From: a virus
Taxonomy: Duplodnaviria > Caudoviricetes
DNA length: 64,000 nt
IMG/VR virus record: IMGVR_UViG_3300035661_000030
Coordinates: 1-64,000 of that record
Direction: 5' to 3' (one strand)
Position numbers and translations under genes: made by a program. Below are positions 4,512-56,893 of this stretch, piece after piece; the stretch's first letter is position 1; each line of letters opens with the position of its first letter. Below the pieces are notes generated by a model. The model did not search any database. It was not told the DNA's origin and saw only the letters and a list, made by a program, of their open reading frames with translations.

Positions 4512-4632
4512 TTAACAGCCTCGATAGCTGCAAGAAATTTTTTTAAATATTCTTTTCCTTCAGGACTCATGCTCCATGTATCATTAAACCAAGCTGCATG
4601 ATCTTTAAAGAATTTAATTGCTTCTTCTTTTG

Positions 4633-5154
4633 TCATTCAAAATCTCCAAATCCATAATTAAGGTAGCATTCTTTACAACTATCCCAAAGTAATCCAGATC
4701 CACCCATATCATCATCTGTTTTCTTTAGAAGCTTACAGCCTCCGATATGATTTTGGCCTACTGCTACAATTCCGATATGATTAATTCGTTCTTCAGTTGG
4801 AATTTCAATAAAGTAATGAAATGGGCAAACAACTTGAATATAATCTTTTTCTTCTACGTTTAAAGGACGATATATTTTATAGCAATAAGGCGTGCCTTTA
4901 GGAATTAATTCAAATAGATCATTCTTACCAGTTTCGCTTTGATATTGGCGATACCATCGTTTATTCCATTTATTCTGACTAACAACTTGTCGCTTTTTCT
5001 TCTTTCTTTGCTGTTTCTTGGTCCATTTAGACTCAGCACGAAGAATATCAATCAGTTTCATTCGTTTCTTGGTCCATTTAGACTCAGCACGAAGAATATC
5101 AATCAGTTTCATTCGTTTCATGCTCATAGAAGTCACTCCCATTGGGATAGTCAC
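4633..5154 (-). CDS. Hypothetical Cys-containing phage protein with a 17-aa tandem duplication
   Basis: IPKGTPYCY...CPF...GCKLL...LWDSCKEC pattern; duplicated RMKLIDILRAESKWTKK. Confidence 0.65.
   Translation of the reverse strand: MTIPMGVTSMSMKRMKLIDILRAESKWTKKRMKLIDILRAESKWTKKQQRKKKKRQVVSQNKWNKRWYRQYQSETGKNDLFELIPKGTPYCYKIYRPLNVEEKDYIQVVCPFHYFIEIPTEERINHIGIVAVGQNHIGGCKLLKKTDDDMGGSGLLWDSCKECYLNYGFGDFE
5013..5119. repeat. Perfect 51-bp tandem duplication
   Basis: 5013-5063 = 5064-5114, plus a 5-nt partial third copy. Confidence 0.95.
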
Positions 5155-5350
5155 AATATTCGGAAGTAATTAATAAACATGGAGAGGTAATTCCTTTATG
5201 TTGACGTTCCATAGTCTCGCTATAAATAAGACAAATTGGCATAATCCAATCGGTGTCAGGATCTTTCAGATAAACTGGAAGATTACCAAGTTGAGTCTCT
5301 AACTCTTTTAGCTGTTCAATAAGCTGTCTAATGCTACAGGTGGCTTTCAT
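5099..5350 (-). CDS. Hypothetical protein
   Basis: 83-aa ORF in a tightly packed operon. Confidence 0.6.
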   Translation of the reverse strand: MKATCSIRQLIEQLKELETQLGNLPVYLKDPDTDWIMPICLIYSETMERQHKGITSPCLLITSEYCDYPNGSDFYEHETNETD

Positions 5351-11035: not shown

Positions 11036-11139
11036 AGCTAAAAAATACCTCCTTTTGTTAATATTAAAATAACATAGACAACCCTCCGTCTATGTTATAA
11101 CATAATATAATTAAGTTTTGCGTAGTCTATCAATGGTTT

Positions 11140-38700: not shown

Positions 38701-39021
38701 CTCCCGGTTGTATGTCACTCCATGTCTGCGGGTGCTAATTTTACTGGTAATTGGCCTGGCGCTAACTATTGGGGGATTGGCCCTATTTCGTCGCATGGAA
38801 TTAGGCTTGGGATGGTTGATTCCTCAAATGCGTTTATGTCTCCACCTGGGGATATGTCTTTGCAGATAGATGCTTCTGTCAGTATGGGTGCGTTCGGTAG
38901 CAACGGCAAAACACCACAGACTAGCGCCTCAGTCAATGCGGCCTGCACCGATCTAAATACCGCGATAGCCCTTGTTAACCAACTTCGTTCAGCACTTATA
39001 GCCAACGGAATTTGCGTGTAG
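32740..39021 (+). CDS. Giant modular fibre/adhesin protein, 2093 aa
   Basis: Thr/Ser/Gly-rich; pyocin-knob-like domain (DLNSYTTPGFYY...W.R....TWGSW); recurrent ALSAT(T/S)GTFS linkers; internal duplications. Confidence 0.9.
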   Translation: MPIPLIAELVPKNEGKFALLDDKNLRGSYRICATLAERNSIPADNLKYGMVVFVQENGKKYTLESDLITWTELTSASSIGGNGITNQVAYWSASNFISGITVTSGLLAHDNTGLPAAVISTTPGAILVASATRPLFSNCTILPNTTGFAITGGSTTAKTLTVSNTLTLAGTDSSTLNIGAGGTLGTAAFTAATAYEAALGNPATSGYVLSSTTDGVRSWVANGFQNPMTTLGDLLYGGTSGVATRLAGPTVNGTYILAEVVSASVAVAPTWININTITAAAVTNSLTINNSGTGAASGTTFNGSSAVTISYNTIGALPNLYTTLGDLDYAGASGIPARLAGPTVAGTYILTETPTGSAAVAPVWTNANTLTVAKTTNLVGAAWGIPYQSATDTTSFVAQPGAAGRVFLSGANNAAPNWSAGTLTLPASGSLTIPAFAVSFSNAFATTGAFSTSLTQSANLTLALPPVATANMVYNTAAPGANNQLVYAANTSNAISYITAPAALSVLTQSSDAAAPAWTTATGTGSPVMGTDPTITLNSSNKLILNFTPALGTDAVNKTYVDNIALGLNDWKQGTGFVKVSGGTISYDNSAYLTGTKVDSFNTRTGAVTLTSSDVTAALTYTPINKAGDTGIGNLSMSALSATTGTFSNTITQQNASNWSASPVLTSHSQLISGSSGLTKLTNIASYTVNNNTGTGTIKITLPVSWTNTMIRMRIAGYAYDASGAYEIHLGGYNYSTTLAWTNTSAVILGDCPFTSIRFGHDGTYCCILLGTTSTVLSYPKITIEEVELGHSGISASWVSGWTITQITSETGITITGTPTIKTAFISDGAHALSATSGTFSGALSASQFNGSGAGLTGTANSLSIGGNAATANNLNNIRITASTDLNSYTTPGFYYCPLDADAATLTNCPSANAFGMIVAYASGVTQFLWSYMTSSGNYWMRKNYSGTWGSWVRILREDAQTYGISISGTASNVSAANNTINANYYPVFATSQGTSVALGTNSGFTFNPSTNLLTIGGGISATTGTFSGALSANAGMNINRVNSVSTGILYYSSGYTAWQTYMSNAGVASGVSGTVVAPTGTYVTTWGLRNFIENAAGYGWTWESGTGASTTPSIVAELSSNTGNFRTIGSISATTGTFSSQVSVTTSDSQQIKVIQGTQTNYIGSTGSSGNAQLTIQGANYTHGLNLLDSYNTTAYAALYGGYYNNDATLTLRKYSAQNTVSATSVYASTYANISGPLTATSGTFSSNITTGGRLISTGQISPNLHLDPTDGANSVYLNYYAGTGGVNFCNGANGIVASISGSGALTATSGTFSGKVIANGPNLGLANGLEVYYSALGPLAAFRSLNGSNNPYFMISGTSTGITLATDGSSYGDIRLRTSSTDQLIISTTGAATFSSSVSMGALTATSGSFSGTLSLPSNGSTYFKIGNGDAASMATCNIDLAVWNGFGLWNPTTGGTFPNQRSIYFDVRNGAAEFGGGITATTGTFSGALSATSGTFSSNITTGGRLISTGQISPNLHLDPTDGANSVYLNYYAGTGGVNFCNGANGIVASIDGSGNGTFNGVLLATQIYGKSNLANQQAPLNYSYIGSTDDNVTDTVVLLHPAYNGTLINKYLFDGTITFQRGSTGSYNISDNYDVKTSTAYSSNTGSIISKNTQRVANLVTCTYNSVLYVALYVPKTASRDVYYKGDLLSTLANPLVLSASSVSNVSVLAQDNTNLGGPLSATSGSFTLPVVCHSMTTGANFTGNWLGANYWGIGPISSHGIRLGMVDSSNAFMTPPGDMSLQIDASVSMGALTATSGTFSSSSTVGVVINNTNGGNYNCEMQFSLAGTTYYDIGTNIAIPGGAAFEFYDRSYSRLMLSLGRNNSGASFNGGSVSMGALSATGGNFTQDLNLITAPDNAVFAIKNGSNRRWAIFSHGSETGSNAGSDIAIANYTDAGAYGSIVFSINRATGAANFASSVSMGALTATTGSFSGALSATSGSFTLPVVCHSMSAGANFTGNWPGANYWGIGPISSHGIRLGMVDSSNAFMSPPGDMSLQIDASVSMGAFGSNGKTPQTSASVNAACTDLNTAIALVNQLRSALIANGICV
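36460..37401 (+). repeat. 183-bp exact internal duplication (36460-36642 = 37219-37401)
   Basis: Identical by direct comparison. Confidence 0.9.
37909..38892 (+). repeat. 219-bp diverged duplication (37909-38127 vs 38674-38892)
   Basis: 73 aa with 4 substitutions but many synonymous changes. Confidence 0.9.
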
Positions 39022-39119
39022 GATGATTTATGACTAAAGAATACATTTGTAAACATGATGGCTTTGCAATAATTATTATCGCTATTTAAATAAGTTTTAT
39101 CTAAATGGTAGGAGGCGCT

Positions 39120-39653
39120 ATGTTTAAACCAGGAGATGTTTTACTATACGAAGCCCCAGCATGGAAATTTTCTAATATTATTCCAAAACTCATTAGATTG
39201 ATAACCGGGAATAAGATTACCCATGTAGCTTTATATATTAATCAGGAAGGTGATAAACATATCATCTTAGATGCAGGCACTAAAGGCATTCGTACACTTT
39301 CTATGACAGAAGCAGAGTTATATAATAGAGCAGATGATTTTCATTTAGCTGGTATTGCTAGATTAAATAATTTTCAACCCTCATTAGAACAAGACAAATT
39401 AAAGGCAGCTGCTTCATATTTCATTGGTAAAAAGTATGGATATTTAACAATATTTAATTTATTATTGCAGCATGGAATGGGTAGATTATTCAACAAAGAA
39501 TGGAAGATCTGGTTTAAATCAAATGATGCTTATATTTGTTCAGAATCTACTCAATTAGTTTATGAAAAAATGGGATTTATATTTAATAAGCCAGCCTGTT
39601 TAGTAGAACCCGACGATTATCTAAGTGACCCCTGGATATTTATAAAATCGTAG
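39120..39653 (+). CDS. Permuted papain-like (YaeF/YiiX, NlpC/P60 superfamily) amidase
   Basis: PGDVLL...HVALY...KKY...YICSE; GGAGG SD before the ATG at 39120. Confidence 0.85.
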   Translation: MFKPGDVLLYEAPAWKFSNIIPKLIRLITGNKITHVALYINQEGDKHIILDAGTKGIRTLSMTEAELYNRADDFHLAGIARLNNFQPSLEQDKLKAAASYFIGKKYGYLTIFNLLLQHGMGRLFNKEWKIWFKSNDAYICSESTQLVYEKMGFIFNKPACLVEPDDYLSDPWIFIKS

Positions 39654-39660
39654 GCATTAA

Positions 39661-39993
39661 ATGAGAGAACGTAAATTATCTAAATAGGTCATGAGTAAAT
39701 AGATAATTATTTCTAGACGTATAGAGATGAAACCGTAGTAAAAAATTTAATCAAGTCAGCAGAACATCATTAAAAATGAAGAAAAATTAATGAAAGATTC
39801 TAAATATCCACAATTAGAAGAACATATAAAAGAGCATGAATTAATAGTAAAGGAATTAAGAATATTACGCGCTAAATTACAATCTGAAATTTTAGATTTT
39901 ACTATGAAATTTACATTAGTTAATAAAAATTGGCTTAAACATTTATATAAACATGACAAACTTTTGGTGAAGTTCCTAAATAAAAAAACTTGA
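39661..39993 (+). pseudogene. Decayed hemerythrin
   Basis: One frame gives IGHE*IDNYF*...SAEHH*, then a frameshift into KNEEKLMKDSKYP..EEHIKEH...HLYKHD. Confidence 0.75.
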
Positions 39994-40018
39994 CAGCTAA
40001 TCTTGGTTGTGTCACAAT
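39990..40018 (+). promoter_or_regulatory. Promoter TTGACA-N17-CACAAT with extended TG
   Basis: Read directly; followed by GGAGG and ATG at 40035. Confidence 0.7.
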
Positions 40019-40034
40019 TTAAGTGGAGGTAATT

Positions 40035-40418
40035 ATGGCTATTTCAGTTCCAGGTTCAATCTCAGGAAATGTAGTTTCTGAGTATGCAGCTACAAACATT
40101 TGTATTAATCGAGTTATGATTGATCAAAATGGTATTTTAGTAGCAGCATTTAATGCACAAGTTAATTATGAAAAGAAAACATATGTAGTTGATGCCAATG
40201 GAAATAAGATTGGTCTTGTTACTACGCAAGATCAAAATGTTCCAATGCCAACTATGAATGATCAATCTAGAGGTTTTATTAACCTTGATTTTGCCACTTT
40301 CGCTCAATACTTCTCTAAGGTTTGTGTTGGTGGTGAAATTTTAGGTGAAGAAGTAGCTAATTTAGTAGATAATTTAATTCATAAAGACTTAATCAATAGA
40401 GGTATTTTAACCGCTTAA
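40035..40418 (+). CDS. Hypothetical protein
   Basis: Promoter and GGAGG SD upstream. Confidence 0.7.
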   Translation: MAISVPGSISGNVVSEYAATNICINRVMIDQNGILVAAFNAQVNYEKKTYVVDANGNKIGLVTTQDQNVPMPTMNDQSRGFINLDFATFAQYFSKVCVGGEILGEEVANLVDNLIHKDLINRGILTA

Positions 40419-40458
40419 TAACCCAGGCACAATGATCGTGCCATAATAGGAGATAGTC

Positions 40459-40755
40459 GTGAAGATTGATTTCTCACAAGAACTGAAAGACTTTACAGGT
40501 GAACCGCTTAAGTTGAATGAAAATTCACCTAACTTGACCTTAAAAGATGTCATTACTTTAGCTCTTAAATCCCCTTTACAGGAAGATGCTACTCTTCCTC
40601 TCGATGCGAAAATCAAGCTTGATCGCATTGGTGAAACCGTTTGGTCTGGAAATGGCGAGTTAGAACTTGAAGATGCTGCTTTAATTAAAGAGCGTGTGTC
40701 GAAAGTATTTCCAACTCCTGCTGTTGCCGGGGCTGTTCGTAGAGCAATTGGTTAA
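40459..40755 (+). CDS. Hypothetical protein (fibre-chaperone-like size)
   Basis: GTG start with GGAG SD; followed by a terminator. Confidence 0.7.
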   Translation: MKIDFSQELKDFTGEPLKLNENSPNLTLKDVITLALKSPLQEDATLPLDAKIKLDRIGETVWSGNGELELEDAALIKERVSKVFPTPAVAGAVRRAIG

Positions 40756-40790
40756 TAGTTATATCTTAACACTTAAATCAATAGCTAAAA

Positions 40791-40815
40791 AAAAGCCCTC
40801 TTGCGAGGGCTTTTT
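40791..40815. terminator. Bidirectional intrinsic terminator
   Basis: AAAAGCCCTC-TTGC-GAGGGCTTTTT between convergent units. Confidence 0.9.
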
Positions 40816-40986
40816 CATTTTTACTTGTTTTCAGGAATCGAAACCTTGCTTTTATTTTACGAAAATAAGTTGGCTGTACCATCATCGGGTACGATTTAAT
40901 CTCTGCGACTCAGAGAACCAACTTAGGGCAACCGTTTCCGGTCAGCCTCCACCACTTGCTTTTAACCATATAAAGCAAGAAAGGAT

Positions 40987-41062
40987 TGGTTGGGGCGCTA
41001 GGACTCGAACCTAGAACCGACAGGATCAAAACCTGTTGCTCTACCAATTGCGCTACACCCCA
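40987..41062 (-). tRNA. tRNA-Gln(TTG)
   Basis: Cloverleaf, acagg-ttTTGat-cctgt, encoded CCA. Confidence 0.95.
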
Positions 41063-41072
41063 TTAGTAATAA

Positions 41073-41116
41073 TGGTGGCCGTTTTAGATATCAATGATAT
41101 CTTAGGATAAACGGCC
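41073..41116 (-). ncRNA. 44-nt CCA-terminated minihelix
   Basis: GGCCGTTT/AAACGGCC stem + 7-bp hairpin + A-CCA. Confidence 0.45.
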
Positions 41117-41195
41117 AAACCTAACGGTTCTAGAACCGTGTGTCTTTTTTATAAAGCTAATTTGACCAAAGACCATGAAATATCAAATTAACTCC

Positions 41196-41586
41196 TGGCC
41201 GGATCTTCTTAAAGAACAAAACGGAAGCGTTGCATACTAGCTAGTGTAGCAACCTTTCTTTGTGGTGGCGAAGTGTACCGCTCCGTTATTCCACTCATAT
41301 CGCAGATCGACCCTTGTTTAAGGGGATCTTCCGTTTTGTTTTTTAAAAAGGATGGGGGTTTTAATCCACTTGTCCCTACCCCCAAAGGTCTTAAAGTGCG
41401 TGGACCTTACCCAAGTCATTACACTTCCGTTCGTCAGACTTGGAATTGAGAACGTGAAGTAAAATCTGCCAAATCAACATTAGCACCTATTCGACATACA
41501 GGAGTTTTTATGGCTCACTATGTCTACTCATTCGGTAGTTGATACGGATGACGTCTCTCTTTTGCGTAGGATAGAGAATTGGCAGA
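41196..41586 (-). ncRNA. Putative structured ncRNA(s), multi-stem
   Basis: Long closing stem around three hairpins; three hairpins with complementary loops; TCTGCCAA/TTGGCAGA-closed domain. Confidence 0.45.
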
Positions 41587-41587
41587 A

Positions 41588-41662
41588 TGGTAATCCCAAG
41601 GGGATTTGAACCCCTGTTCCCGCCGTGAAAGGGCAGTTTCCTAACCACTAGAAGATGGGATC
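41588..41662 (-). tRNA. tRNA-Glu(TTC)
   Basis: Cloverleaf, ctgcc-ctTTCac-ggcgg, CCA. Confidence 0.95.
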
Positions 41663-41799
41663 ACAACTATTCGGAGAAGGTGTAATCAATCCTTAACACC
41701 AGTCTGTTGACTTATCTCACGATAAGTCTCTTCTCCGAAAAACCAAGCTGCGATTACGCATATCGAGTCCTAGAATACGTCCATAGGACACTTGGTTAT

Positions 41800-41876
41800 T
41801 GGTGGAGCTGATGGGACTCGAACCCATGACCCACGGCTTAAAAGGCCGTTGCTACTACCAGCTGAGCTACAGCTCC
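41800..41876 (-). tRNA. tRNA-Lys(TTT)
   Basis: acggc-ctTTTaa-gccgt, CCA. Confidence 0.95.
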
Positions 41877-41890
41877 GTGCTCCTAATTAA

Positions 41891-41976
41891 TGGTCCTCGG
41901 GACCGGATTCGAACCGGTACGTCCTTTCGGACAGCGGATTTTAAGTCCGCGGCGTCTGCCGTTCCGCCACCCGAGG
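41891..41976 (-). tRNA. tRNA-Leu(TAA)
   Basis: gcgga-ctTAAaa-tccgc, long variable arm, CCA. Confidence 0.95.
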
Positions 41977-41980
41977 TAAA

Positions 41981-42128
41981 GTGCCCGAGTATTTGCATTT
42001 GCTCGGGTCTATCTTATTCTGGCTTAGAGTTGCAACTCTAAATGCACTTAGCCATATCCGGTTTCCGCAGGTCCGGCAACCTACCCCATCCAATATTTCA
42101 ACGCAGCCCGATGAGGTAGGCTTGGCGT
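41981..42128. repeat. ~148-nt structured element, copy 1
   Basis: About nine in ten positions identical to 42641-42787; compensatory change in one stem. Confidence 0.9.
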
Positions 42129-42134
42129 TGATAT

Positions 42135-42635
42135 CTGAAGTTTTTTGCCTATCTACTCGCTAGAATAGAATAGGTCTTACAGGCTAACTTCTTAACCCAT
42201 CAGTGAACCGCCACTGATAAGCGTTTCCTAGGGCCTTGTTATTAGGCGTCCCTAACTAAGCAAGTCCTAGCAACTAATTCAGTTTGCGAGACTGAATTAA
42301 TTGAGCCATATTTTCGATAAATCTATCCGCCGATAGACCTATCTATATATGGCTGTTGCAAGTTTAACGGGAATTCTTTAACCCGTAGTCTGTGGTAAGC
42401 AGACCAACGCCTTTTATGCGTTTTACTTGCTTTGTCCACCTAGTAGCGCGCTTGTCAACCCAACAAGCCCTAGCGGTGGCTCCCTCTTGTTTATTTGTGG
42501 GGAATCACAAGACCGTTATTCGATACGGTCAAACGCTTGATCTTCAGCATTCTCATAACCCCAATCAAGCTATTATGAGGGGAACGGTCATTCATCTACC
42601 GCCAAACACAGAGTTTTTGAAAAGAACTCTTCAAA
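42135..42635. ncRNA. Putative large multi-domain ncRNA between the two repeats
   Basis: More than a dozen hairpins, nested junctions, one pseudoknot; no credible ORF. Confidence 0.5.
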
Positions 42636-42640
42636 CTTTT

Positions 42641-42787
42641 GTGCCCGAGTATTTGCATTTGCTCGGGTCTATTCTTTCGGGCTTAGAGTTGCAACTCTAA
42701 ATGCACTTAGCCCTATCCGGTTTTTACAGGTCCGGCAACCTCCCTCATCTATATTTTCAACGCGGCCCGATGAGGTAGGCTTGGCGT
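42641..42787. repeat. ~147-nt structured element, copy 2
   Basis: See copy 1; offset 660 bp. Confidence 0.9.
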
Positions 42788-42797
42788 ATACAGCTTT

Positions 42798-42931
42798 GTT
42801 TACAAGCCGAATGATTACCCTTGGACTTTATTGCCAAAGGTAATCACACGTTCCCTGCTGACACAGGAGCCAACTATACTATTACGATGTCAGTCGTAAC
42901 AGCATTTCGTTGAACTTGAACACTTGTAAAC
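42798..42931 (-). ncRNA. Four-way-junction RNA with kissing loops
   Basis: 9-bp closing stem; loops CTGACA and TGTCAG complementary; two G-U pairs on the minus strand. Confidence 0.55.
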
Positions 42932-42955
42932 GCTGCATTTATTTTATAACAGAAA

Positions 42956-43219
42956 TTACTCTTTTTTTGCAACTTTGAACCAATACCGACGTGAACGATC
43001 AATAAAATCATTCCATTCTTTTTCAATTCGCATTGGGGGTTCCTGCATCGTCTCATTATTTAATCGAGCAATAGCGATCATCATGCCTTTCTTTTTATTG
43101 TAATTATCCCTCTTGTGACAAACAGAATATCCTGTATTTAATTCACCTTTTTCATTTAAATTTGAGAGCATGATCCCAATAGGATTCCCTCGCTTGTCTC
43201 TGATATACTGTTTAAGCAT
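42956..43219 (-). CDS. Conserved small phage protein within the tRNA cluster
   Basis: GGAG SD; GYSVCHKRD.YNKKKG..IA..R pattern. Confidence 0.75.
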   Translation of the reverse strand: MLKQYIRDKRGNPIGIMLSNLNEKGELNTGYSVCHKRDNYNKKKGMMIAIARLNNETMQEPPMRIEKEWNDFIDRSRRYWFKVAKKE

Positions 43220-43241
43220 ATTAAATACTCCTTAATAAGAT

Positions 43242-43316
43242 TGGTCCTCCTGCTAGGAATCGAACCTAGACCCGCGCCTTAGAAGGGCGCTGCTCAATCC
43301 ATTAAGCTACAGGAGG
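43242..43316 (-). tRNA. tRNA-Arg(TCT)
   Basis: gcgcc-ctTCTaa-ggcgc, CCA. Confidence 0.95.
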
Positions 43317-43371
43317 ATGTAATAGTATTGTTTTTTAGAGTATCGGTTAACCTATACACCGAAAGGTTATT

Positions 43372-43779
43372 TGGTGGACCTGGAGGGAGTCGAACCCTCG
43401 TCCAAGAAAAGCGCCCAAGGCAATTGTAGCAGCTTATCCTATTTAGTTACCTATATAGCCATAATAGGCAAAAAGCTATAAAGGTTTAATAGTATTTTTC
43501 AGATTGGATTTACTATCATTACCAATCCAAGTCTTATAACGGTTTTTCGAGCAAGTCTACTATTCCGTATTTAACGAGATCCATACTAAGACGATTTGGA
43601 TTACTCGTCCTCAATTAAGCCGCTTTAGCGAAAGCGAAAGCAGGGGCATTGAAGAAGCTGGCAACGAAAGTAAACACGTTGTTGGCATTTAGGTTTTAGA
43701 TGATTGATAAACCGGCCATCATCCTTCCGGTGCTGCTTGCTTATGAACTATACTTAACCTGTCGAAACCAGGCAGGCCC
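43372..43779 (-). ncRNA. ssrA: tmRNA; tag (A)ANNVFTFVASFFNAPAFAFAKAA* at 43686-43615
   Basis: 5' GGGCCUG...GGUUUCGAC; 3' T-arm GGUUCGACUCC and ACCA; G3-U70; tag ends in AA then TAA. Confidence 0.93.
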
Positions 43780-43805
43780 ATTTGTAAAACATTTCACTGA
43801 TTGAT

Positions 43806-43881
43806 TGGAGCCTATAGTCGGAATCGAACCAACGACCTACTGCTTACAAGGCAGTTGCTCTACCAACTGAGCTATATAGGC
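43806..43881 (-). tRNA. tRNA-Thr(TGT)
   Basis: actgc-ctTGTaa-gcagt, CCA. Confidence 0.95.
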
Positions 43882-44130
43882 GAAACGGCAGTTTAAGCAC
43901 AACTGCCAAGCCACTAATTTTTGTTCTTAAGATAAGTATTTGGTAAGTGATCCAAATTACTTTCCGCAATCGGTCAGTCAGGTTTCAGAGATACACTATG
44001 CGCTAAGGGTGGCCGATAACCATATAGCGTTTAAGTTTACCCTACCTTACAGTCATGACGTTTGGAGCTATTAAGGTGATAGCTTTAATCCAAATCGTTA
44101 CGGATTGGATACCGTATTCCTCGTTTTTAT

Positions 44131-44207
44131 TGGTCGGGGTAATAGGATTTGAACCTATGACCCTCTGCTCCCAAAGCAGATGCGCTACCAGGCTGCGCTA
44201 TACCCCG
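44131..44207 (-). tRNA. tRNA-Pro(TGG)
   Basis: tctgc-ttTGGga-gcaga, CCA. Confidence 0.95.
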
Positions 44208-44221
44208 ATTAGTTTATTTAA

Positions 44222-44295
44222 TGGAGCGAGATATCAGATTCGAACTGATTTCTTCAGCTTGGAAGGCTGAGGCACAACCCATATACCAATCTCGC
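44222..44295 (-). tRNA. tRNA-Gly(TCC)
   Basis: tcagc-ctTCCaa-gctga, CCA. Confidence 0.93.
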
Positions 44296-44305
44296 TTTTT
44301 ATGGA

Positions 44306-44408
44306 TGGTAGGTCCACTAGGATTCGAACCTAGAACATTCGGTAATCTGCCGACGCTCTTTCGAGTGGAGGGTATAAACCTCTTGTTTTACCGTTAAACT
44401 ATGGACCC
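44306..44408 (-). tRNA. Atypical 103-nt tRNA-Ile(TAT) with a 28-nt two-hairpin insertion
   Basis: Normal acceptor, D and T arms; gagg-ttTATac-cctc; insert ACTCGAAAGAGCGTCGGCAGATTACCGA. Confidence 0.75.
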
Positions 44409-44422
44409 ATTATTTCAATAAA

Positions 44423-44498
44423 TGGTGGGGACGGAGAGGCTCGAACTCCCGACATATTGCGTGTAAGGCAATCGCTCTACCAACTGAGCTACATCCCC
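44423..44498 (-). tRNA. tRNA-Val(TAC)
   Basis: attgc-ctTACac-gcaat, CCA. Confidence 0.95.
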
Positions 44499-44513
44499 GT
44501 TTAATCAAATTAA

Positions 44514-44589
44514 TGGTGGCCCCACACAGATTCGAACTGTGGACCAGTCGGTTATGAGCCGACAGCTCTGACCGCTGAGCTATAGGGCC
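44514..44589 (-). tRNA. tRNA(CAT), Ile2-like or elongator Met
   Basis: gtcgg-ctCATaa-ccgac; GGCCC acceptor start like Ile2; paired 1-72, so not an initiator. Confidence 0.9.
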
Positions 44590-44726
44590 AAAATATTACA
44601 TTCGATAGTTCTTTTTATTTAAGTTAATAATTTCTTGCTTTCCATTATAATAACCGATTTTGTAAATCACAAAAAATCCTATAAATCCTGTAATCATAAT
44701 TAAAATGTTCATCAATCTCCTTTAAA

Positions 44727-44818
44727 TGGCGGAAGGTGAGAGATTCGAACTCTCGGATAGGTGTTAACCCATCAACAGTTTTCAAGACTGGCCCATTAAA
44801 CCACTCTGGCAACCTTCC
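44727..44818 (-). tRNA. tRNA-Ser(TGA)
   Basis: cagt-ctTGAaa-actg, long variable arm, GCCA end. Confidence 0.95.
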
Positions 44819-44827
44819 GTTATAGAT

Positions 44828-44904
44828 TGGCTTCTATTGTTAGATTTGAACTAATAGCCTAGTGATTAACAGTCGTTCACTCCAACTAATTGAGCTAAAC
44901 GGGA
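44828..44904 (-). pseudogene. Degenerate tRNA-Asn(GTT)
   Basis: TAGCTCA, ctGTTaa, TTCAAAT and GCCA retained, but acceptor and anticodon stems are mismatched. Confidence 0.7.
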
Positions 44905-45010
44905 ATGGGAATATTTATTTCGCCAGGGCTACCCTAAAGCTGCCCTGATCGAATAATTATCTTTATGCAATTATCAATGACGATTAATCTTCCCCGTAGG
45001 GCATACAAGT

Positions 45011-45038
45011 AGTGTAACACAACTGAGCTATCTGTCAA
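45011..45038 (-). promoter_or_regulatory. Promoter TTGACA-N16-TACACT (extended TG) heading the tRNA cluster
   Basis: Read directly. Confidence 0.7.
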
Positions 45039-45069
45039 CCATGACAGGTAAGAATATTTAATTTAAAAT

Positions 45070-45116
45070 TAGCTCCACCTTAACCCAAAGATTTTCTCTA
45101 GGTTAAGGTGGAGCTA
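45070..45116. repeat. Perfect 16-bp inverted repeat with a 15-nt loop
   Basis: TAGCTCCACCTTAACC / GGTTAAGGTGGAGCTA; between the nuclease gene and the tRNA promoter. Confidence 0.85.
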
Positions 45117-45184
45117 TCAACAATTTGGTGCGCCTAAGCTTAAACGTATTATAAGAATTATGGCACACCAAATATATACCATGC

Positions 45185-45205
45185 CTCCATATATATTATA
45201 ACAAA
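45185..45205 (-). promoter_or_regulatory. Second copy of the 21-bp extended -10/SD motif
   Basis: 20/21 identical to 3480-3500. Confidence 0.55.
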
Positions 45206-45211
45206 ATGTTG

Positions 45212-46165
45212 TTATATTTTGCATGTATTTTTTATTGCAATTAATCTTTCAAGTTTTCTAGATAATATTCCACAGTCTTTAGATTTAGATATTATAGCTT
45301 CAGCCAAAGCTAACGTTTTATCTATTTGCGTTGTTTGCGGATAATATAATATTGATAAATAATTTGATTTATCTGTATTTTTAGTATAAATATATTTAAA
45401 ATATTCTGAAAAATTATCTAACAATTGATTTGCAAATATTTCCGAAGCTGTACATACATTTATGTAAGGCTTCTGCCCTGGATATATTTTTGATACATAT
45501 CCATTACCTTCTATTGTACCTATTAAAAAATAAATATGTAATTCTTTTGGAATTAAATCAAATCTAATATTTAAAGAATATGATTTGTATTGTGTAATTC
45601 CAAATAATTTTAAATCTTCTCCAATTTCTTTGGACATTACATATGTTCTAAAGTTATCTTGTTCTTTATAATATGTTCCACCTAATTCTTCTATTACAAA
45701 ATCAATTAACTCTATATCTTTTGAACTAAATCTTATTCTATAATTACCACCTTTTATTTGTCGTATATCTCCATCCGTTGCAAGCAATCCTAACATTCTT
45801 GCTTTTTTTGGAGTTAAATTTTTAAAGTAATCATGATTAGCTATAATCTTATATTTTCTTTCTACTTTAATATTGTTTTTTTTAAGTACTAAACGAATAC
45901 ATGAATCTGACACGTTGTATTTTGAAGCAATTTCTTTAATTGTCATTTTTTCTATTTTATATAATTTTATAATATCTATTTTATCTAATTCAGAAATTTT
46001 AGTTAAAGCTTGAGCTATACCTTTGGCTGTATTATTTCTTCTATTTACTTTTGGTAGATTATATTTTTTTATTAATCGTGGAATTGACCATTTTGGAATA
46101 TTGTTTCTTGTAGCAATATCTGTCCAAGTTAATTCACTATTTAGATAATCCTCTTTAAATCCCAT
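45212..46165 (-). mobile_element. Free-standing LAGLIDADG homing endonuclease with N-terminal HTH-like segments
   Basis: RMLGLLATDGDI and YFLIGTIEGNGYV motifs; GGAGG SD. Confidence 0.85.
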
Positions 46166-46248
46166 AAATCCTCCCGATTACCATTGTAGCATAAATTGGA
46201 AAATTCACGTTATTTTGATTTTTACTTATACTATGATATAATTTATAT

Positions 46249-46917
46249 ATGACGAATGATTTGATTAGACAATATCAAGAAACTGGATCTAAAGAAGTGG
46301 AAGATCAATTGTTTGATCTTCATAAAAGTTATATTCAAGCAAATATAAACAAGTGGAGTGGGGTTTTGCCAGAAGCCGTTTTGCAGGCTTATGGAAAACA
46401 TTATGCGAAAAATGCATTTAAGTCATTTGATCCAAATAAAGGTGGCAGTATTAATACTCATCTTTATAATCATATTTCTCAACTGTCTCGTAGAGTTTAT
46501 GCCGCTAACAATTCCCTTTCTATTCCCGAACATCAAATTCAAATGATTGGTAAAGTTAATTCTGCTAGAGATTTGCTTGCAGATGAACTTGGAAGAGATC
46601 CTACGGTAGATGAAATAGCTGATCATCTTTCATTACCTAAACAACATATTGCAAAAGTTATTAAAAATCAAAGAGCAGATTTCTTAAATGATTCAGATAC
46701 AGATATACAATATCAAGTTGGCGGTGATAGTAAAGTAGCAGATAAAATCTTTGGTTATCGTCAAGCTCTTGAAGATAAACAGAAAGAATATTTTGATGCT
46801 TTAACTGGATTTGGTGGAACAAAACCATTGACTCCACAACAGTTTGGCAAACAATTTAAAATGAAACCATATGAAGTTTCTAGATTAAAAGCTTACTTTG
46901 CGAAGGGGTTAAAATAA
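46249..46917 (+). CDS. Sigma-70-family RNA polymerase sigma factor
   Basis: Region 2 AFKSFDPNKGGSINTH; region 3 ELGRDPTVDEIADHL; region-4-like C-terminus; TG-A-TATAAT upstream. Confidence 0.88.
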   Translation: MTNDLIRQYQETGSKEVEDQLFDLHKSYIQANINKWSGVLPEAVLQAYGKHYAKNAFKSFDPNKGGSINTHLYNHISQLSRRVYAANNSLSIPEHQIQMIGKVNSARDLLADELGRDPTVDEIADHLSLPKQHIAKVIKNQRADFLNDSDTDIQYQVGGDSKVADKIFGYRQALEDKQKEYFDALTGFGGTKPLTPQQFGKQFKMKPYEVSRLKAYFAKGLK

Positions 46918-47294
46918 TGGCTACTACAATTACTAGAGAACAAGTGTTAAGTGATCGTGTTATTACGGTCAAGATTTTTTTAGCTTCTAAGGATGCTAGT
47001 GATGATGCTCTCATTAAAAAATTCGGGGATATAAAAATAAACCCATCTGGTGAGTTTGGTGATCCTAACGATGCTGCCTATCCTCAGTTTAGAGTAGACG
47101 CAGGGGATGCTGTTCCATTTTTCACGGTTGGAGAGATCAAGGCGGTATTCGCAAATGATACTCTTACAATCCTCGATTTACAAAAGAGAGCAGATTTATG
47201 GGGCGATAAAATTCAATTAGATATTCAAAATGCTATGATAGCTTTAAGGGCTTTAACTGATAAAACCACTTCAACTACCACGGTAACTATTTAA
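46917..47294 (+). CDS. Hypothetical protein
   Basis: Translationally coupled to the sigma gene. Confidence 0.7.
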   Translation: MATTITREQVLSDRVITVKIFLASKDASDDALIKKFGDIKINPSGEFGDPNDAAYPQFRVDAGDAVPFFTVGEIKAVFANDTLTILDLQKRADLWGDKIQLDIQNAMIALRALTDKTTSTTTVTI

Positions 47295-47710
47295 TGGCCT
47301 TTCAATCATTTCTAGAAAAATATAAATCATTTCTTACTAACTGGAGCAAGTCAGCTTCAGGTGAAGGAACTACAGAAACTTTTGATTATCAAATTAATAC
47401 AAAACAAGAATTAAATGCTTTACAGAATGTTTCAACAATTAATGATATGGTGCAATTAAGTAATGGTTATTATGACCAAGTTGGAATTGGCAGAGCTATT
47501 AAAGAATTATATAAAACTCCTAAAGATTATTTAGCTGATTTTAAATCTTATAATGAAATGTTAATTAAAAGATTAGATAATATTGGAGGTGAAGTTGCAG
47601 ATTCAACTATTAATGTAGCTAATACAATTGAAAAAAGCAAATCAATAAAAGGCATCTCTCAGAAATTACAACTTAAACTTTCATTAATAAAATCGGAATT
47701 CGATGCGTGA
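47294..47710 (+). CDS. Hypothetical protein
   Basis: Coupled ORF. Confidence 0.7.
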   Translation: MAFQSFLEKYKSFLTNWSKSASGEGTTETFDYQINTKQELNALQNVSTINDMVQLSNGYYDQVGIGRAIKELYKTPKDYLADFKSYNEMLIKRLDNIGGEVADSTINVANTIEKSKSIKGISQKLQLKLSLIKSEFDA

Positions 47711-48122
47711 CTTAGATATTACAAATAGAGATTTATTTGGAAATGTAACTTTCCAAATGAAATCATCCTCTGTATCGGGGATTGAAAATGTTATTCAAAA
47801 AGTCACAACAATGCTTCTCTCTCAAAATAAAACAACCTATTTTGGTTCAGTTATTGGAAGTGATGCATTATCAGTAGGTAAATTTAATTATGCTAATGAT
47901 GATTCTTCTGATTTTAAACTTGTTATTGCGGATAACTTAATCAATATCTTAAACGCAATTCAATCAGATGAGAGTAAATATAATATTCCTGTAGAAGATA
48001 GAATTAAAGACATACAAATAAAAGACTTGGTATTTGAAAAGAAAACGTTAAACGTATTTCTTTCTCTTATTGTTTCAACAAATTCTGCTACTAAAGTAAT
48101 TCAACTTCCGGTGAAAAAATGA
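47703..48122 (+). CDS. Baseplate wedge protein (gp25-like)
   Basis: SGIENVIQKVTTMLL...GS...ED.I..I pattern; directly before the baseplate-J-like gene. Confidence 0.6.
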   Translation: MRDLDITNRDLFGNVTFQMKSSSVSGIENVIQKVTTMLLSQNKTTYFGSVIGSDALSVGKFNYANDDSSDFKLVIADNLINILNAIQSDESKYNIPVEDRIKDIQIKDLVFEKKTLNVFLSLIVSTNSATKVIQLPVKK

Positions 48123-49810
48123 ATGGAACTGATTTCATTAAATTTGCTATAGATACATTAAAAGCAGATCCTAACTATTCAGATATTGATATGTCTGAAT
48201 CATCAGCTTTTTATAATATGGTAATATTACCTTTCACCGTACTAAGTAAACCTATTTATGATATGAATGAAGCTAATTTATCTGCATTAAAATTAGAGTC
48301 AATGACAGATACTCAAATGGACGATTATGCTTCAATGTTTTTTGTCAAACGTAGAACCGAAAATTTACTTACATTAGAAATTTCAATCTATTTAACTAAT
48401 ACGGCAGCTGATACAGAACCTTTAATTGTTTCTACTACAGATCAATTTAGAACAAGTTCAAATCAGGTATTTTCTCCAATTCAAGATTATGTATTTGCTT
48501 ATAATACTTTGCCTACGGTTACAATTAATGGCACTATTTATAAAGTTGCTACAATTGTAACTTCATCAGCTAATAATTATAGTCAAGTTGCAGAAGGAAG
48601 CATTAAGACGAGTTCATTACTTCATCCATTAATTCAATTTGTCACTAATACTAAATCTTCATCTTCACCTTTAACTTCTGAAACTAATACCGAATTTATT
48701 AATACAATTCAGAAAGCTATTACTCAAAGAAATAACACAACTTCAGATTCATTGTATACAAATCTCAAGCTTGCTTTCCCTCAAATTACAGACTGTCTTT
48801 CTATTGGACATTCTGACCCTGAAATGCAAAGAGATATTGCTGTAGCCGGTAAAACATGGTCTGGTCATTTTGGTGGTATGACAGATATTTATATTCGTAC
48901 ACCATTAACTCCAGTAACCGCAACTATGTCAGCCACAGATATTGGAAATGGATATAAATTTAAAATTCAAAGATATAAAGGTTACGATTGGAGTGCTACA
49001 GATAACGCTTCTCCAAACCCATTATCATTAACCCCCTGGATTTTATTGCAGACTAATGATCCATTACCTATTACTCCAGTTGTATTGATTGATTGGACTG
49101 GTACTTCTATTAGTAATACTACTATAACTTTAGATACTAATGGTTATCCTAAATATAGTATTAAAGTTTTACCTGATCCATTAGAAAAATCATATGGTAA
49201 AAATTATCGTTATTCACCATATGAAAATATTGAAATTACAATTTATACAAATTTAAATCCAGGTGGAAATCAAACCGTAACATTAAAATATTATACATTA
49301 TCAAATATCGAAGAGATTCAATCATTTGTCAATTCTTCTGCAAATAGAGTTTTGTGTTCAAACAATCTTGTTAAATCTTTTATTCCAGTAGAAATAAAAA
49401 GCTTGAATATTACTTACGATTCACGATATACTGTAAATGAAACGCAATGGAAAACAACTATTGCGAATCTAATTAATAACTGGTCTTTACCAGAACCAAT
49501 TAGATTAACTACTTTATTAAAAGACTTTCCCGCGCCAACACGAATTGATGAAATCTGGTATGATAATAATGCAAACAATCTTCCTTATAAAACTGATGTA
49601 AATGGAATTATAATTGGAACAAACGTATCTACTGGCGCTTATCCTTGTTATGCAACAATGTTATTAGAAAACATTGATGGATCACATCAATATTATCTTT
49701 CTACTAGACAATTATATCCTTTAGTTAGTAATGGCATTTCAACATCATATAGAACTTGCAGATATTTTATTGATCCTACAAATATTTCCTTCATTAAAGG
49801 GAGTTGGTAA
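48119..49810 (+). CDS. Baseplate J-like wedge protein
   Basis: D.YAS.FFV.R...; ETNTEFI..I; SIGH.DPEMQRD; G.TDIYI. Confidence 0.7.
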   Translation: MNGTDFIKFAIDTLKADPNYSDIDMSESSAFYNMVILPFTVLSKPIYDMNEANLSALKLESMTDTQMDDYASMFFVKRRTENLLTLEISIYLTNTAADTEPLIVSTTDQFRTSSNQVFSPIQDYVFAYNTLPTVTINGTIYKVATIVTSSANNYSQVAEGSIKTSSLLHPLIQFVTNTKSSSSPLTSETNTEFINTIQKAITQRNNTTSDSLYTNLKLAFPQITDCLSIGHSDPEMQRDIAVAGKTWSGHFGGMTDIYIRTPLTPVTATMSATDIGNGYKFKIQRYKGYDWSATDNASPNPLSLTPWILLQTNDPLPITPVVLIDWTGTSISNTTITLDTNGYPKYSIKVLPDPLEKSYGKNYRYSPYENIEITIYTNLNPGGNQTVTLKYYTLSNIEEIQSFVNSSANRVLCSNNLVKSFIPVEIKSLNITYDSRYTVNETQWKTTIANLINNWSLPEPIRLTTLLKDFPAPTRIDEIWYDNNANNLPYKTDVNGIIIGTNVSTGAYPCYATMLLENIDGSHQYYLSTRQLYPLVSNGISTSYRTCRYFIDPTNISFIKGSW

Positions 49811-50316
49811 TGAAAGCTTCTGAATTTTTAATGGCTAAAGCGTTAGAGTATGATGATTTTCGCTTAACTAAATTAGCTCATGAATTACATGAATCTGATG
49901 CTGATTTTGAATATATTAAAGAAGCTGGTTTGGCTAGTGGATTGCTTGCTGCCGGTAGTCAATTGTTAAAAAATAACGTAGTTCGTAATGCTGCTATCGG
50001 TGCTGGAGTTGGTGCGTTATCTGGTGCCGTTAATGCTGGCGAAGGAAATAGATTATCTGGAGCTTTAAAAGGTGCTGCTTTGGGTGGTGCTGTTGGCGGT
50101 ATTGGAACTGGAGCTATGAACATTAATACTGCAATGAAGGTTCCGGGTACAACAATAGGTCAAGCTATTGGACAGCAATTTAATCAAGTCGCTGGAGTTG
50201 TAAATAAAGCTGGTAGAGCTTTTGATATTGGTAATAGTGGTAAAACTTTTGGTTCAAAATTAGTAGTACCTGCAACTAATCAAACTGGCGCAGGAACGGC
50301 CCAAGGACACTTATAA
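49810..50316 (+). CDS. Gly/Ala-zipper protein, putative internal head/ejection protein
   Basis: AAIGAGVGALSG and GAALGGAVGGIG after an acidic leader ending TKLA...IKEA. Confidence 0.6.
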   Translation: MKASEFLMAKALEYDDFRLTKLAHELHESDADFEYIKEAGLASGLLAAGSQLLKNNVVRNAAIGAGVGALSGAVNAGEGNRLSGALKGAALGGAVGGIGTGAMNINTAMKVPGTTIGQAIGQQFNQVAGVVNKAGRAFDIGNSGKTFGSKLVVPATNQTGAGTAQGHL

Positions 50317-50317
50317 T

Positions 50318-50620
50318 ATGTCTCTAATTAAATTAGCAGTTCAACCAGTAATAGTTATAAATAAAACAGATCCTAATAACCAGGGGTCTAAAACATTTAA
50401 TGCTAAAAATTTAGTTGCTGCTGTTACTGGTGGCACTACTGGCTTTTTAGCAAGCCATAAAATTGAGCATTTACCAAAATTTAATGATAAACTTTTATCT
50501 CATCAATATGCTAAACGTATGGGTTCTGTATTAGGTGGATTTACCGGTGCTGCCGCTGCATATAAATTAATGAATAAAAAGAAAGAACAAGATCAATCAC
50601 CTAAATTTTATATGCTGTAG
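50318..50620 (+). CDS. Small Gly-zipper protein starting MSLIKLA
   Basis: Two GGxxG hydrophobic segments. Confidence 0.6.
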   Translation: MSLIKLAVQPVIVINKTDPNNQGSKTFNAKNLVAAVTGGTTGFLASHKIEHLPKFNDKLLSHQYAKRMGSVLGGFTGAAAAYKLMNKKKEQDQSPKFYML

Positions 50621-50626
50621 GTAATT

Positions 50627-53600
50627 ATGAATTCTGAACGTGATATTACCAGGAAAACTAGTCAAGGAATCATTGACGCAATTCATAATAACATTAAAGA
50701 CATATTTCCTTTATCTGTAGGCAATAAAACTTTAGAAGTTAAAAATGTAGAAGTTAGTGGATGGGACAATGCCGATCCCAAAAACTATTATGCAATAGCT
50801 GATGCTAAAGCTAAAGACAAAACATATGGCGTTCATCTTTATGGTGATGTAGAACTAAAAGAAAATGGAATTCTCTTAGATAAAAAGAGAATGAAACTAG
50901 CTACTGCTCCGGTAATGGCTGGTGATGGAACATTTATTGTAGGTGGATCGCAATACCAAATTGATCATCAATTAAGATTACGCCCTGGTATTTATTCTCG
51001 CGTAAAGCAAAATGGTGAAATTGAAGCGCATATCAATCCTGATGGATTTAAAAATCTTCGTTTAGCCGTTGATCCTGCTACTAAAAAATTAACAATAAAT
51101 GTAAATCAGGCTAATATTAACGCTATTCCTGTACTTCGTATTCTTGGCATTAAAGACGACTTAATTAAGAAAACTTTTGGACCTGATGTATATGATGCGA
51201 ATATTAAGGCGATTGGGAAAAGGGGTGATGATGAAATTAAGCGTTTCTTTAAATCAGTTCATCCATATGACGAGATTCCAGAAACTTATGAAGCTATTGC
51301 AGAACGTTTAGCTACGTCGTTAAAAGAAGCTAAACTTGATCCAAAGGTGACTCAAATTACTTTAGGACAAGAATTTAAACATGTAAACGGTCAAGCTCTT
51401 TTACGTGGTTTTGAAAAAGTTATTAATGTTTCTCGTGGCATCGAACAGCCTGATGATCGTGACGCTTTAGCATTTAAAACTATTCATTCTGTCGAAGATT
51501 TTGTAAACGAAAGAATTAAAAAGAATCGTAAACAAATTCAGTTTTCAATTGAAAACAGAATGCGAAAAAATGATAAACTTGATCAGATTATGAATGCTGG
51601 TCATATTAATCAACATATTTTTTCATTCTTTAATTCTGCTGCTCTCTCAGAAATTCCTTCACAAATTAATCCTCTTGCAGTAATTAACAGTTCATTCAAA
51701 ACTACAATTACTGGTGAAGGTGGTATTGAAAATGCAGAATCAATTATGCCTGAATCACAGGCATTGCATCCTTCTCATTTAGGATATCTTGATCCTATCA
51801 ATACGCCCGAATCAAAGAAGATTGGCGTAACTTTAAATTTAGCTATTGGTACTTCTAAAAAAGGTAATGAACTTTATACTAAATTAAAAAATATTCATAG
51901 TGGTAAAGAAGAAGATGTTTCTACTATTGATGCTTATCATAAAGTTATAGCATTGCCGGGTCAAAAAATGACGGGTCAGGTAACTGCTATTAAAAATGGT
52001 AAGCAGGTAGAGGTTGACGCTAAGGAAGTTACTCATGAACTTCCTAATGCTTATTCAGCTTTTACTATGGCCTCACAAGCTTTACCTGCAATGAATCATA
52101 ACCAGGGTAACAGAGCAGGCATGGCTTCTCGTCATATTAATCAAGCTATTTCTTTAAAGTATCGTGAAGCCCCATTAGTTCAGGTTAAATCACCTATTGC
52201 TAATGGAATGAGTACAGAAGAATTCTTTGGCAAGAATTTCCAAATTGCCATTCATGCTAAAGAAGATGGCGAAATAAGTAAAATTACTAAATCACATATT
52301 GAAATGACCAATGGAACTAAGTATCCTATTTTTGATCATTTTGACTTACAGAATAAATCTTATCTTCATCATGAATTAGAAAATCTCAAACCAGGCATGA
52401 AGTTTAAGAAGGGTGAATTAATTGCTGATTCTAATTTCAGTAAAAATGGAGTTCTGTCTTTAGGTACAAATCTTCGTACAGCTTATATGCCGTGGAAAGG
52501 CTTAAATTTTGAAGATGGTATTGTAATATCTGAAACCGCTGCCAAAAAATTAACTTCTAATCACCTGTTTCAAGATCATATTGAAAAAGATGATGATTCA
52601 ATTATTGTTAATAAACGTAAATTTGTTACAATGTATCCTACGCTTTATACTAAAGAGCAATTAGATAAAATTGATGATAATGGTTTAGCTAAAGTTGGAG
52701 TTAAACTTAACCCTGGCGATCCTTATGCGTTAGTTTTGAACAAGACTCAGGGTACTCCTGAAGATTTAATGCTTAATAGATTACATAAATCTCTTGTTCA
52801 ACCATATAAAGATGCTTCTAAAACATGGGATCAGTTAACACCTGGAAATGTAACTAAGGCTATAGAAAACGCAAAGAATGTAAAGATTCATGCTAAGTAT
52901 GAAGCTCCTGCGATTATTGGAGATAAACTTGCTTTACGTCATGGTAATAAAGGCGTTATTACCGCAATCATACCAGATGCAGAAATGCCTTCAACGAAAG
53001 CTGGAAGATCTACTGAAGTAATACTTAGTCCTTTAAGTGTTATTACTCGTATGAGTCTTGGTCAGATGCTTGAAAATTCTGCAAGCAAAATTGCGGAGAA
53101 AACAGGTAAACCTTATATTATTGAAAATTTCGCAAAAGAGAGTCAGTTAGATAAAATTAAAAAGGATCTTCAAAAACATGGTTTATCTGATACAGAAGAA
53201 TTATTTGATCAAAACGGAAAATCATTTGGTCATGTAATGGTTGGTCAACCATTAGTAGAGAAACTTTTCAAAACCGCTAAAGCTAACGTTTCGGCTAGGG
53301 ACGCTGGCGCATATGATATAGATAATAAGCCAATTAAGGGTGGGGATGATGGTTCTAAAGCTATTGACCAATTGACTCTTTATGGATTATTATCACACGG
53401 TGCAAGAGGTATTGTGAATGAAGTTTCTACCATCAAAGGTGATGGTAATGCTCAATTCTGGCAAAATCTTCAAAATGGTTTACCAACTCCCAAACCACAA
53501 ATTCCTTTTGTCTATAAGAAGTTTGAAGCAATGCTTCATGCTTCTGGTATCAATATTCGTAATGATGGATCAAAGAAAATTTTATTACCTTTGACCGATT

Positions 53601-56605: not shown

Positions 56606-56685
56606 AAAAACTTGTTTTTGATGAATATAGACTCTAAAATATTTTTGTGAGATAATGTGTCATGCGTGGTTCTTGTTTAATAGCT

Positions 56686-56719
56686 AAAGAAAAGCGCATA
56701 TTGCTATGCGCTTTTTCTT
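56686..56719 (+). terminator. Intrinsic terminator after the RNAP gene (symmetrical)
   Basis: AAGAAAAGCGCATA-TTGC-TATGCGCTTTTTCTT. Confidence 0.88.
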
Positions 56720-56893
56720 AATCAATCAAATAGTTTATTAATAATATATACTACTAACAAAGATCCTATCTTTTCCTCAATGTCTAATTTTTTGTTCAAG
56801 TTAAATTCTGTATAAAGTCCATAAATAAAACTTTTCCACACATAATTCTCTGCTTACCAATTTCTCTAAGACATATAATCGGAGTAGATCATA

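Follow-up and report, generated by a model that had tools for sequence, protein, structure and literature searches.

Separable structured RNA modules in the tRNA island of a phage with a fused RNA polymerase gene

Large structured RNAs in phage tRNA islands, such as ROOL, GOLLD and the RNAC and RNAD of T4, are a standing puzzle. ROOL and GOLLD are often found near tRNA islands in phages, and GOLLD uses self-interacting kissing loops (PMC12286853). [quoted passage not shown] Here, we describe a locus in a sparsely sampled clade of ~157-kb phages, which seem to come from lakes and bogs. It contributes several unrelated folds backed by covariation and shows that such RNAs can be assembled from interchangeable modules reshuffled among related phages.

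The window, which is the whole 64,000-nt stretch of viral DNA analysed, is low in GC (~32%) and phage-like. It contains a fused β-β′ RNA polymerase gene (50627-56605) whose product is one 1992-aa protein, a sigma-like gene (46249-46917) and homing endonuclease genes. This gene content, together with a relative (G002) whose 157,395-bp phage genome is complete and has terminal repeats, identifies the contig as phage. Twelve tRNA genes and a tmRNA gene, all on the minus strand, lie between 40987 and 44904, and the stretch at 42135-42635 is located inside this array, bracketed by two 155-nt direct repeats that are 92% identical. In the window and in all informative relatives, the structured RNAs described below are encoded on the other strand than the polymerase gene. 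About 200 homologues of the fused polymerase are present in metagenomes, some of them with inteins.

A sequence-only reading of the window had likened this stretch to the large RNAs ROOL and GOLLD. The resemblance in setting stands: the stretch is non-coding, several hundred nucleotides long and rich in helices and pseudoknots, and it lies in a phage tRNA island, on the strand of the tRNAs (PMC12286853). Like GOLLD, it has one conserved and one variable part. Membership does not stand, as the comparison with ROOL, GOLLD, OLE and RNase P models by Infernal, which that reading had proposed, gave no match. The Rfam 15 search of the whole window at the gathering score returned none of these four families. 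At E ≤ 10 with permissive filters, no family matched the RNA of the stretch at 41900-43000, at L015 4700-6300 or at L027 2100-2900, and the controls (tRNAs, tmRNA and the group I intron of L015 at 47.2 bits) were all detected. The covariance models of ROOL, of GOLLD including its universally conserved 3′ region, and of OLE RNA found nothing in lineages W, A and B (defined below), nor did any RNase P RNA model (CR-I to CR-V) in the window. In contrast to ROOL and GOLLD, the locus is made of small conserved pieces (78-157 nt) that relatives carry separately. A group I intron was also considered and rejected, because the stretch has no Intron_gpI match and sits between genes, not inside one.

RNAC and RNAD of T4 are single RNAs of roughly 120-140 nt, unlike the present locus, where at least five distinct modules stand in a row. 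By description, the two systems are alike in placing non-tRNA RNAs among phage tRNA genes (PMC3014915). The locus also recalls the YrlA-type Y RNAs, which are modular, structured, sometimes phage-encoded and borrow tRNA-like shapes (PMC4201824): the middle junction has a cloverleaf outline, and the loop AUCGAAUA of module P holds the T-loop string UCGAAU. Unlike Y RNAs, the stretch has no Rfam Y RNA match and no acceptor end with CCA, and there is no Ro/Rsr gene among the ORFs examined. The modules are best read as structured RNAs that are novel with respect to Rfam 15 and that resemble ROOL/GOLLD and T4 RNAC/RNAD in setting, not as members of those groups.

Informative loci were reached by using the RNA polymerase and the sigma-like protein as anchors, including a metagenome scan. 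They are referred to as W (the window), G (L016/L026), A (L010/L015/L017) and B (L027), with L019, L020 and L021 as further loci; the RNA polymerases of A, G and B are 80%, 70% and 68% identical to that of the window. Direct searches yielded little. In a blastn search of the region against 50,697 phage records, a tRNA alone matched, and pattern and protein scans of IMG/VR found only two contigs carrying the RNAs. The remaining IMG/VR pattern matches were judged by eye and with the models to be chance, as were 11 matches in 185,579 species genomes, which fell in unrelated high-GC taxa (best model E 0.033). At the corresponding position, neither the P0005 lineage nor more distant relatives, whose polymerases are 48-58% identical, carry a tRNA array. 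In these searches, core homologues were found in four lineages only: W, G, A and B.

The RNA sense of 42136-42640 is the minus strand, the same as that of the 12 tRNAs and the tmRNA. This follows because covarying G.U pairs would be A.C on the opposite strand, because the minimum free energy (MFE) is lower on the minus strand, and because the tRNAs and a promoter-like motif are also on that strand. When folded with both repeats, the 824 nt of the minus strand reached -288 kcal/mol against -227 ± 8 for shuffles (z -7.5); the plus strand of the same 824 nt gave z -6.6. Pairing of one repeat with the other in the MFE fold was rejected as an artefact of their palindromic hairpins. All parts of the RNA locus given below are on the minus strand.

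Upstream of the structured RNAs lies a promoter-like motif (42941-42972; TTGCAA, 18 nt and TATAAA in TGTTATAAAAT) that is conserved in six lineages and overlaps the end of an 87-aa ORF. The minus strand of the 64 kb has three exact copies of TGTTATAANAT, at 42951-42941, at 45203-45193, which is the head of the tRNA array, and at 11092-11102, where the match is palindromic and reads on both strands. The same motif precedes the leader in L010/L015, L019, L020, L027 and L026, and the layout common to the lineages is TTGCAA-N17/18-TATAA(G/A)AT, a leader of ~130-160 nt, structured RNA and tRNA-Leu(UAA). A generic sigma-70 scan of the window did not call the motif, and its promoter role is therefore putative. 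The leader domain (42798-42931) is closed in its MFE fold by a 10-bp long-range stem, GUUUACAAGU/GCUUGUAAAC; leaders of the relatives differ in sequence in each case and are alike in their long-stem closure. The first tRNA 3′ of the structured RNAs is tRNA-Leu(UAA) at 41891-41976, and a bidirectional terminator-like hairpin is found at 40790-40815. Strand, promoter motif and terminator-like site suggest that the modules are co-transcribed with the tRNAs.

The 87-aa ORF (42956-43219, minus strand) just 5′ of the motif is conserved in A, where its homologue has 135 aa and 37% identity, and in L019; G, B and L020 do not have it. It belongs to no Pfam or PHROG family. Its AlphaFold model is confident (pLDDT 87.5) and has three strands and two helices, with a weak best fold match to the anti-CBASS protein Acb4 of phage SPO1 (E 0.06, TM 0.44). 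Directly 5′ of the motif at the head of the array, a LAGLIDADG/HTH homing-endonuclease-like gene is located at 45212-46165 (minus strand), and A and L019 have HNH genes in comparable places.

The two flanking repeats are copies of an RNA with four hairpins, here called rep. Repeat B (42639-42793) scored 191.8 bits and repeat A (41979-42134) 193.6 bits with model R3, which was trained on the W and G copies only. Repeat A ends 2 nt 5′ of tRNA-Leu(UAA), and rep is 5′ of this tRNA in W, G, L019 and L020. Model R3 detected the repeat in A (8e-21), L020 (1e-16) and L019 (1.5e-14), and also in L021, where the contig end cuts it off; no repeat match was found in the region of the A core copy (A1) or in lineage B. 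In the repeat alignment, 94.8% of cells pair and double-sided changes occur at 19 of 36 pairs. This count takes in one pair of a pseudoknot that joins the bulge of hairpin 3 to the loop of hairpin 4 (UGCAU/AUGCA in W vs UGCUU/AAGCA elsewhere). A second pseudoknot joins the stem-1 loop to a strand upstream; its two strands are complementary in each lineage and differ in sequence, as judged by eye and not by column counts. Hairpin 3 ends in a self-complementary apical loop, which reads UUGCAA in W, G, A and L020 and GGGCCA (with GGCC) in L019. The 155-nt repeat is an independent RNA, conserved and pseudoknotted, and is also present without the central part.

The central stretch begins with a 5′ hairpin, AGAGUU/AACUCU (42605-42634), which starts the part shared with G and is identical there, so that covariation is uninformative for it. 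Module P follows (42511-42603) and consists of a hairpin GGCGGU..ACCGUU, an H-type pseudoknot and the hairpin GACCGU/ACGGUC with the loop AUCGAAUA. In the pseudoknot, CUCAUAA (42579-42573) pairs with UUAUGAG (42558-42552) and GCUUGAU (42570-42564) with AUCAAGC (42541-42535). The sequence-only reading had already noticed these two helices; the pairing is exact in W and G and only approximate in A. The module P homologue in A, found by nhmmer at L015 3540-3422, adjoins tRNA-Ile and is remote from the core, and its last hairpin has an altered stem with the loop retained.

The core starts with block I (42434-42511; model R1), which contains P1, P2 and P2a. P1 is the hairpin UUGUG/CACAA, whose loop AUUCCC is complementary to GGGAG (42484-42480), and P2 (CCACC/GGUGG) encloses the invariant strands UAGGG and CGCGCUA together with the hairpin P2a. 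Block I is followed by a cloverleaf-like junction (42358-42430) with the closing stem GCAAGU/ACUUGC and three hairpins, including the conserved ACGGG..AGAAUU..CCCGU. The next block (42271-42354; model R2) shows covariation and holds P4, a long hairpin closed by AGCC.../...GGCU with AACAGC just 5′ of it, and P5, a 13-bp hairpin with the loop CUCGCAA, followed by UUGC. Three variable hairpins complete the stretch (42137-42270): P6 (42270-42228), P7 (42222-42195) and P8 (42191-42137). They are common only to W and G, with other sequence in their place in A1 and B, and P6 has compensatory changes from W to G (CUAGG/CCUAG to CCAGG/CCUGG). We looked for a helix closing the whole stretch and for a conserved partner of the CUCGCAA loop and found neither. 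Separate folds of W, G, A1 and B also revealed no conserved self-complementary loop in the core itself.

Block-by-block folds of W, G, A1 and B, done separately, gave the same architecture. Model R1 recovers five instances of block I in four lineages; built without B, it detected B (L027) at E 2e-4 in 512 kb, with no other credible match. The share of cells that pair in P1, the putative pseudoknot and P2a is 98.4%, compared to 40-55% in slid controls. Double-sided changes were found at 7 of 16 pairs, with covariation at 5 of 6 pairs of P2a, and the P1 stem reads UUGUG/CACAA in W, AAGUG/CACUU in A1, AGUG/UACU in A2 (a second block I copy in A) and AUGGU/GCCAU in B. The AUUCCC loop and the downstream GGGAG are invariant and could pair with each other; since neither strand of this putative pseudoknot ever changes, covariation cannot speak for or against it.

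Model R2 matched W, G, A1 and B only, and its target is single-copy in the genomes G001 and G002. In the outer stem of P4 and in P5, 97.4% of cells pair (25-34% in slid controls), with double-sided changes at 10 of 19 pairs. None of 500 shuffles attained the observed value, a comparison in which related sequences can beat shuffles even without structure. P5 has 13 bp in each of W, G, A1 and B, with one base bulged in A1, and its loop CUCGCA(A/G) is flanked by GCUC and UUGC. The topology of the junction is equal in independent MFE folds of W, G and A1 with different stem sequences: the closing stem covaries (GCAAGU/ACUUGC vs GUGUUAA/UUAAUAC), and so does a hairpin stem (AACGC/GCGUU, AACAC/GUGUU and AACCG/CGGUU), while in B the junction is replaced by a single long hairpin. 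MAFFT gave structurally incorrect alignments for the junction and for lineage B. Column counts were therefore not used for P2, the junction and the first repeat pseudoknot, which were assessed visually in separate folds. The core is known in four lineages, two of them 93% alike, and its covariation counts, which come from about three independent sequences, are suggestive and not final.

All helices listed in the sequence-only reading were present at their places. Covariation in relatives bears out the three-hairpin junction closed by GCAAG/CTTGC, the CCACC..GGTGG helix around GCTTGT/ACAAGC, and the helices AGCCATAT/ATATGGCT, AATTCAGT/ACTGAATT and GACCGT/ACGGTC. The helix ATCAGTG/CACTGAT exists and could be compared only with the 93%-identical G, where covariation is uninformative. 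One proposal had to be revised: GCAAC/GTTGC closing two hairpins found no support, as these bases lengthen the AATTCAGT hairpin to 13 bp in all four lineages.

The order of the parts differs among relatives. It is leader, rep, P, core and rep in W, and leader, P, core and rep in G, whose core and single repeat form a 657-nt block that is 93% identical to W. In A, the order is leader, rep, core (A1), a second block I without the remaining core (A2) and an intron-bearing tRNA-Leu, with module P ~1.9 kb away from the core, beside tRNA-Ile. B lacks rep and has a leader and a core whose middle and 3′ part are different, and L019 and L020 have leader and rep only. The absence of the core from L019 and L020 indicates that it is dispensable for the tRNA operon. 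In relatives, the modules can be found side by side, at a distance from one another or singly, and the stretch is more aptly viewed as a string of separable modules than as one indivisible giant RNA. The suggestion that it forms a continuous unit of ~950 nt with the repeats was not supported: L019 and L020 have the repeat by itself, A has it 5′ of the core and G has it 3′, and in A module P is ~1.9 kb from the core and a second block I stands by itself.

The genes from sigma to polymerase are 65-72% identical between W and G at the DNA level, compared to 92% for the RNA unit, and some neighbouring array blocks are 94-100% identical. At the level of sequence, this difference points to strong constraint or recent cassette exchange, and the far better conservation of the RNA cassette relative to core genes argues for a real function. 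As a separate observation, the comparison of window 39000-57000 with L026 is a mosaic, with blocks of 92-100% identity (39757-40756, parts of the array and tRNA-Arg) beside the core genes at 65-72%, a pattern suggestive of cassettes being exchanged between phages with only 70% protein identity in their polymerases.

On this comparative evidence, we consider it fairly likely that the modules are selected, autonomously folding RNAs that are co-transcribed with the phage tRNAs and probably cut out as stable RNAs. The minus-strand transcript of the tRNA operon would start, probably, at the promoter-like motif (~42972-42941) and run through the leader, repeat B, module P, the core, the three variable hairpins, repeat A, tRNA-Leu(UAA) and the later tRNAs. 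Each piece would fold alone, with its ends joined by its own stems, under selection for structure. Host tRNA-processing nucleases (RNase P, RNase Z or E) may cut the precursor and free the modules as stable RNAs, with RNase III perhaps cutting at the long closing stems. The invariant unpaired strings AUUCCC/GGGAG, UAGGG, CGCGCUA, AACAGC, CUCGCAA and AUCGAAUA may then serve as contacts with protein or RNA partners during infection. Excision and action in trans are suggested by the analogy with T4 and by the closed-domain design. Such small, defined modules (78-157 nt) are tractable for structure determination and partner pull-downs.

It is unlikely, though worth weighing, that the modules are instead cis-acting elements of the tRNA precursor with no role after cleavage, such as processing guides or insulators, protection, or control of read-through into tRNA-Leu. 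They always lie between a promoter and tRNA-Leu(UAA), and every module is closed by a stem, some of 10-15 bp, a length that RNase III could cut. However, the invariant unpaired strings, the pseudoknots and the exact 13-bp hairpin exceed the needs of a spacer, and L020 has only the repeat 5′ of the same tRNA. The identity of 92%, against 65-72% in core genes, also speaks for stronger constraint or for cassette exchange.

We regard as distinctly improbable one large ornate RNA of ~650 nt, or ~950 nt with both repeats, that acts as a whole and forms an RNA-only multimer via self-complementary loops, in the manner of ROOL and GOLLD. Size and phage tRNA island setting would fit (PMC12286853), G conserves the core and one repeat as a 657-nt block, and in A and B the sequence 3′ of the core looks, by eye, like the first two repeat hairpins. 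Hairpin 3 of the repeat has an apical loop that is self-complementary in W, G, A, L019 and L020 and can be likened to the kissing loops of GOLLD. Yet L019 and L020 have the repeat with no core, elsewhere it stands on either side of the core, module P and block I are found apart from the rest, and R3 finds no repeat in B; the core also has no conserved self-complementary loop, and Rfam gave no ROOL or GOLLD match. A more daring idea, which we hold to be a long shot, is that the core and the double-pseudoknot repeat would constitute a third, unrelated class of phage ornate RNA, a protein-free symmetric multimer assembled via the repeat loops. If this were true, the multimer particle would be decorated by variable modules.

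Catalytic or ligand-sensing modules, either a new self-cleaving ribozyme that aids cleavage of the precursor or a riboswitch-like sensor, are very improbable. The compact pseudoknotted folds and invariant junction nucleotides would suit them, and the module borders need processing sites, but Rfam 15 contains no matching ribozyme or riboswitch and there is no coding gene downstream to regulate. We give scarcely any credence to decay, in which relics of tRNA genes or introns were shuffled by homing endonucleases and structure was inherited, not selected. The array is indeed mosaic between W and G, with 92-100% blocks alternating with unrelated sequence, homing endonuclease genes lie beside or inside the arrays, and the middle junction has its cloverleaf outline; against this, double-sided changes keep 97-98% of pairs though the stems share almost no sequence, and neither ARAGORN nor the Rfam tRNA model finds a tRNA in the stretch.

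The chance that the stretch codes for protein is negligible: its one sizeable ORF (102 aa, 42392-42700 on the plus strand) keeps an open frame in both W and G, but most of it is identical in these two, so that the open frame means little; it also has a GTG start, reaches into repeat B and ends in a different C-terminus in G, and A and B, whose sequence differs throughout, retain the RNA helices with no plus-strand gene called over them. Consistent with the earlier remark that there is no credible ORF, 42136-42640 contains no conserved one. Taken together, these results support the reading of the stretch as a non-coding, highly structured and evolutionarily constrained RNA in a phage tRNA island.

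Several further features were observed in the tRNA arrays. At L015 4795-5290 (minus strand), a tRNA-Leu(UAA) is apparently split in the anticodon loop by a group I intron; Rfam Intron_gpI scored 47.2 bits (E 1.7e-10) at 5019-5220, just below the gathering score of 50, and ARAGORN does not call the split tRNA. L019 915-1600 (minus strand) has, by eye, a tRNA-like 5′ half, an HNH-type endonuclease ORF and a tRNA-like 3′ half. It partly resembles the L015 intron region by nhmmer and looks like a homing-endonuclease intron within a tRNA gene. In L027, ARAGORN calls a tRNA with a four-base anticodon (ttcc) at 4610-4707 (minus strand). Furthermore, the array spacers at 41663-41800 and 41355-41460 of the window (minus strand) are kept in G with 83% and 100% identity and look structured, and the tRNA array as a whole seems to hold more unexplained RNAs.
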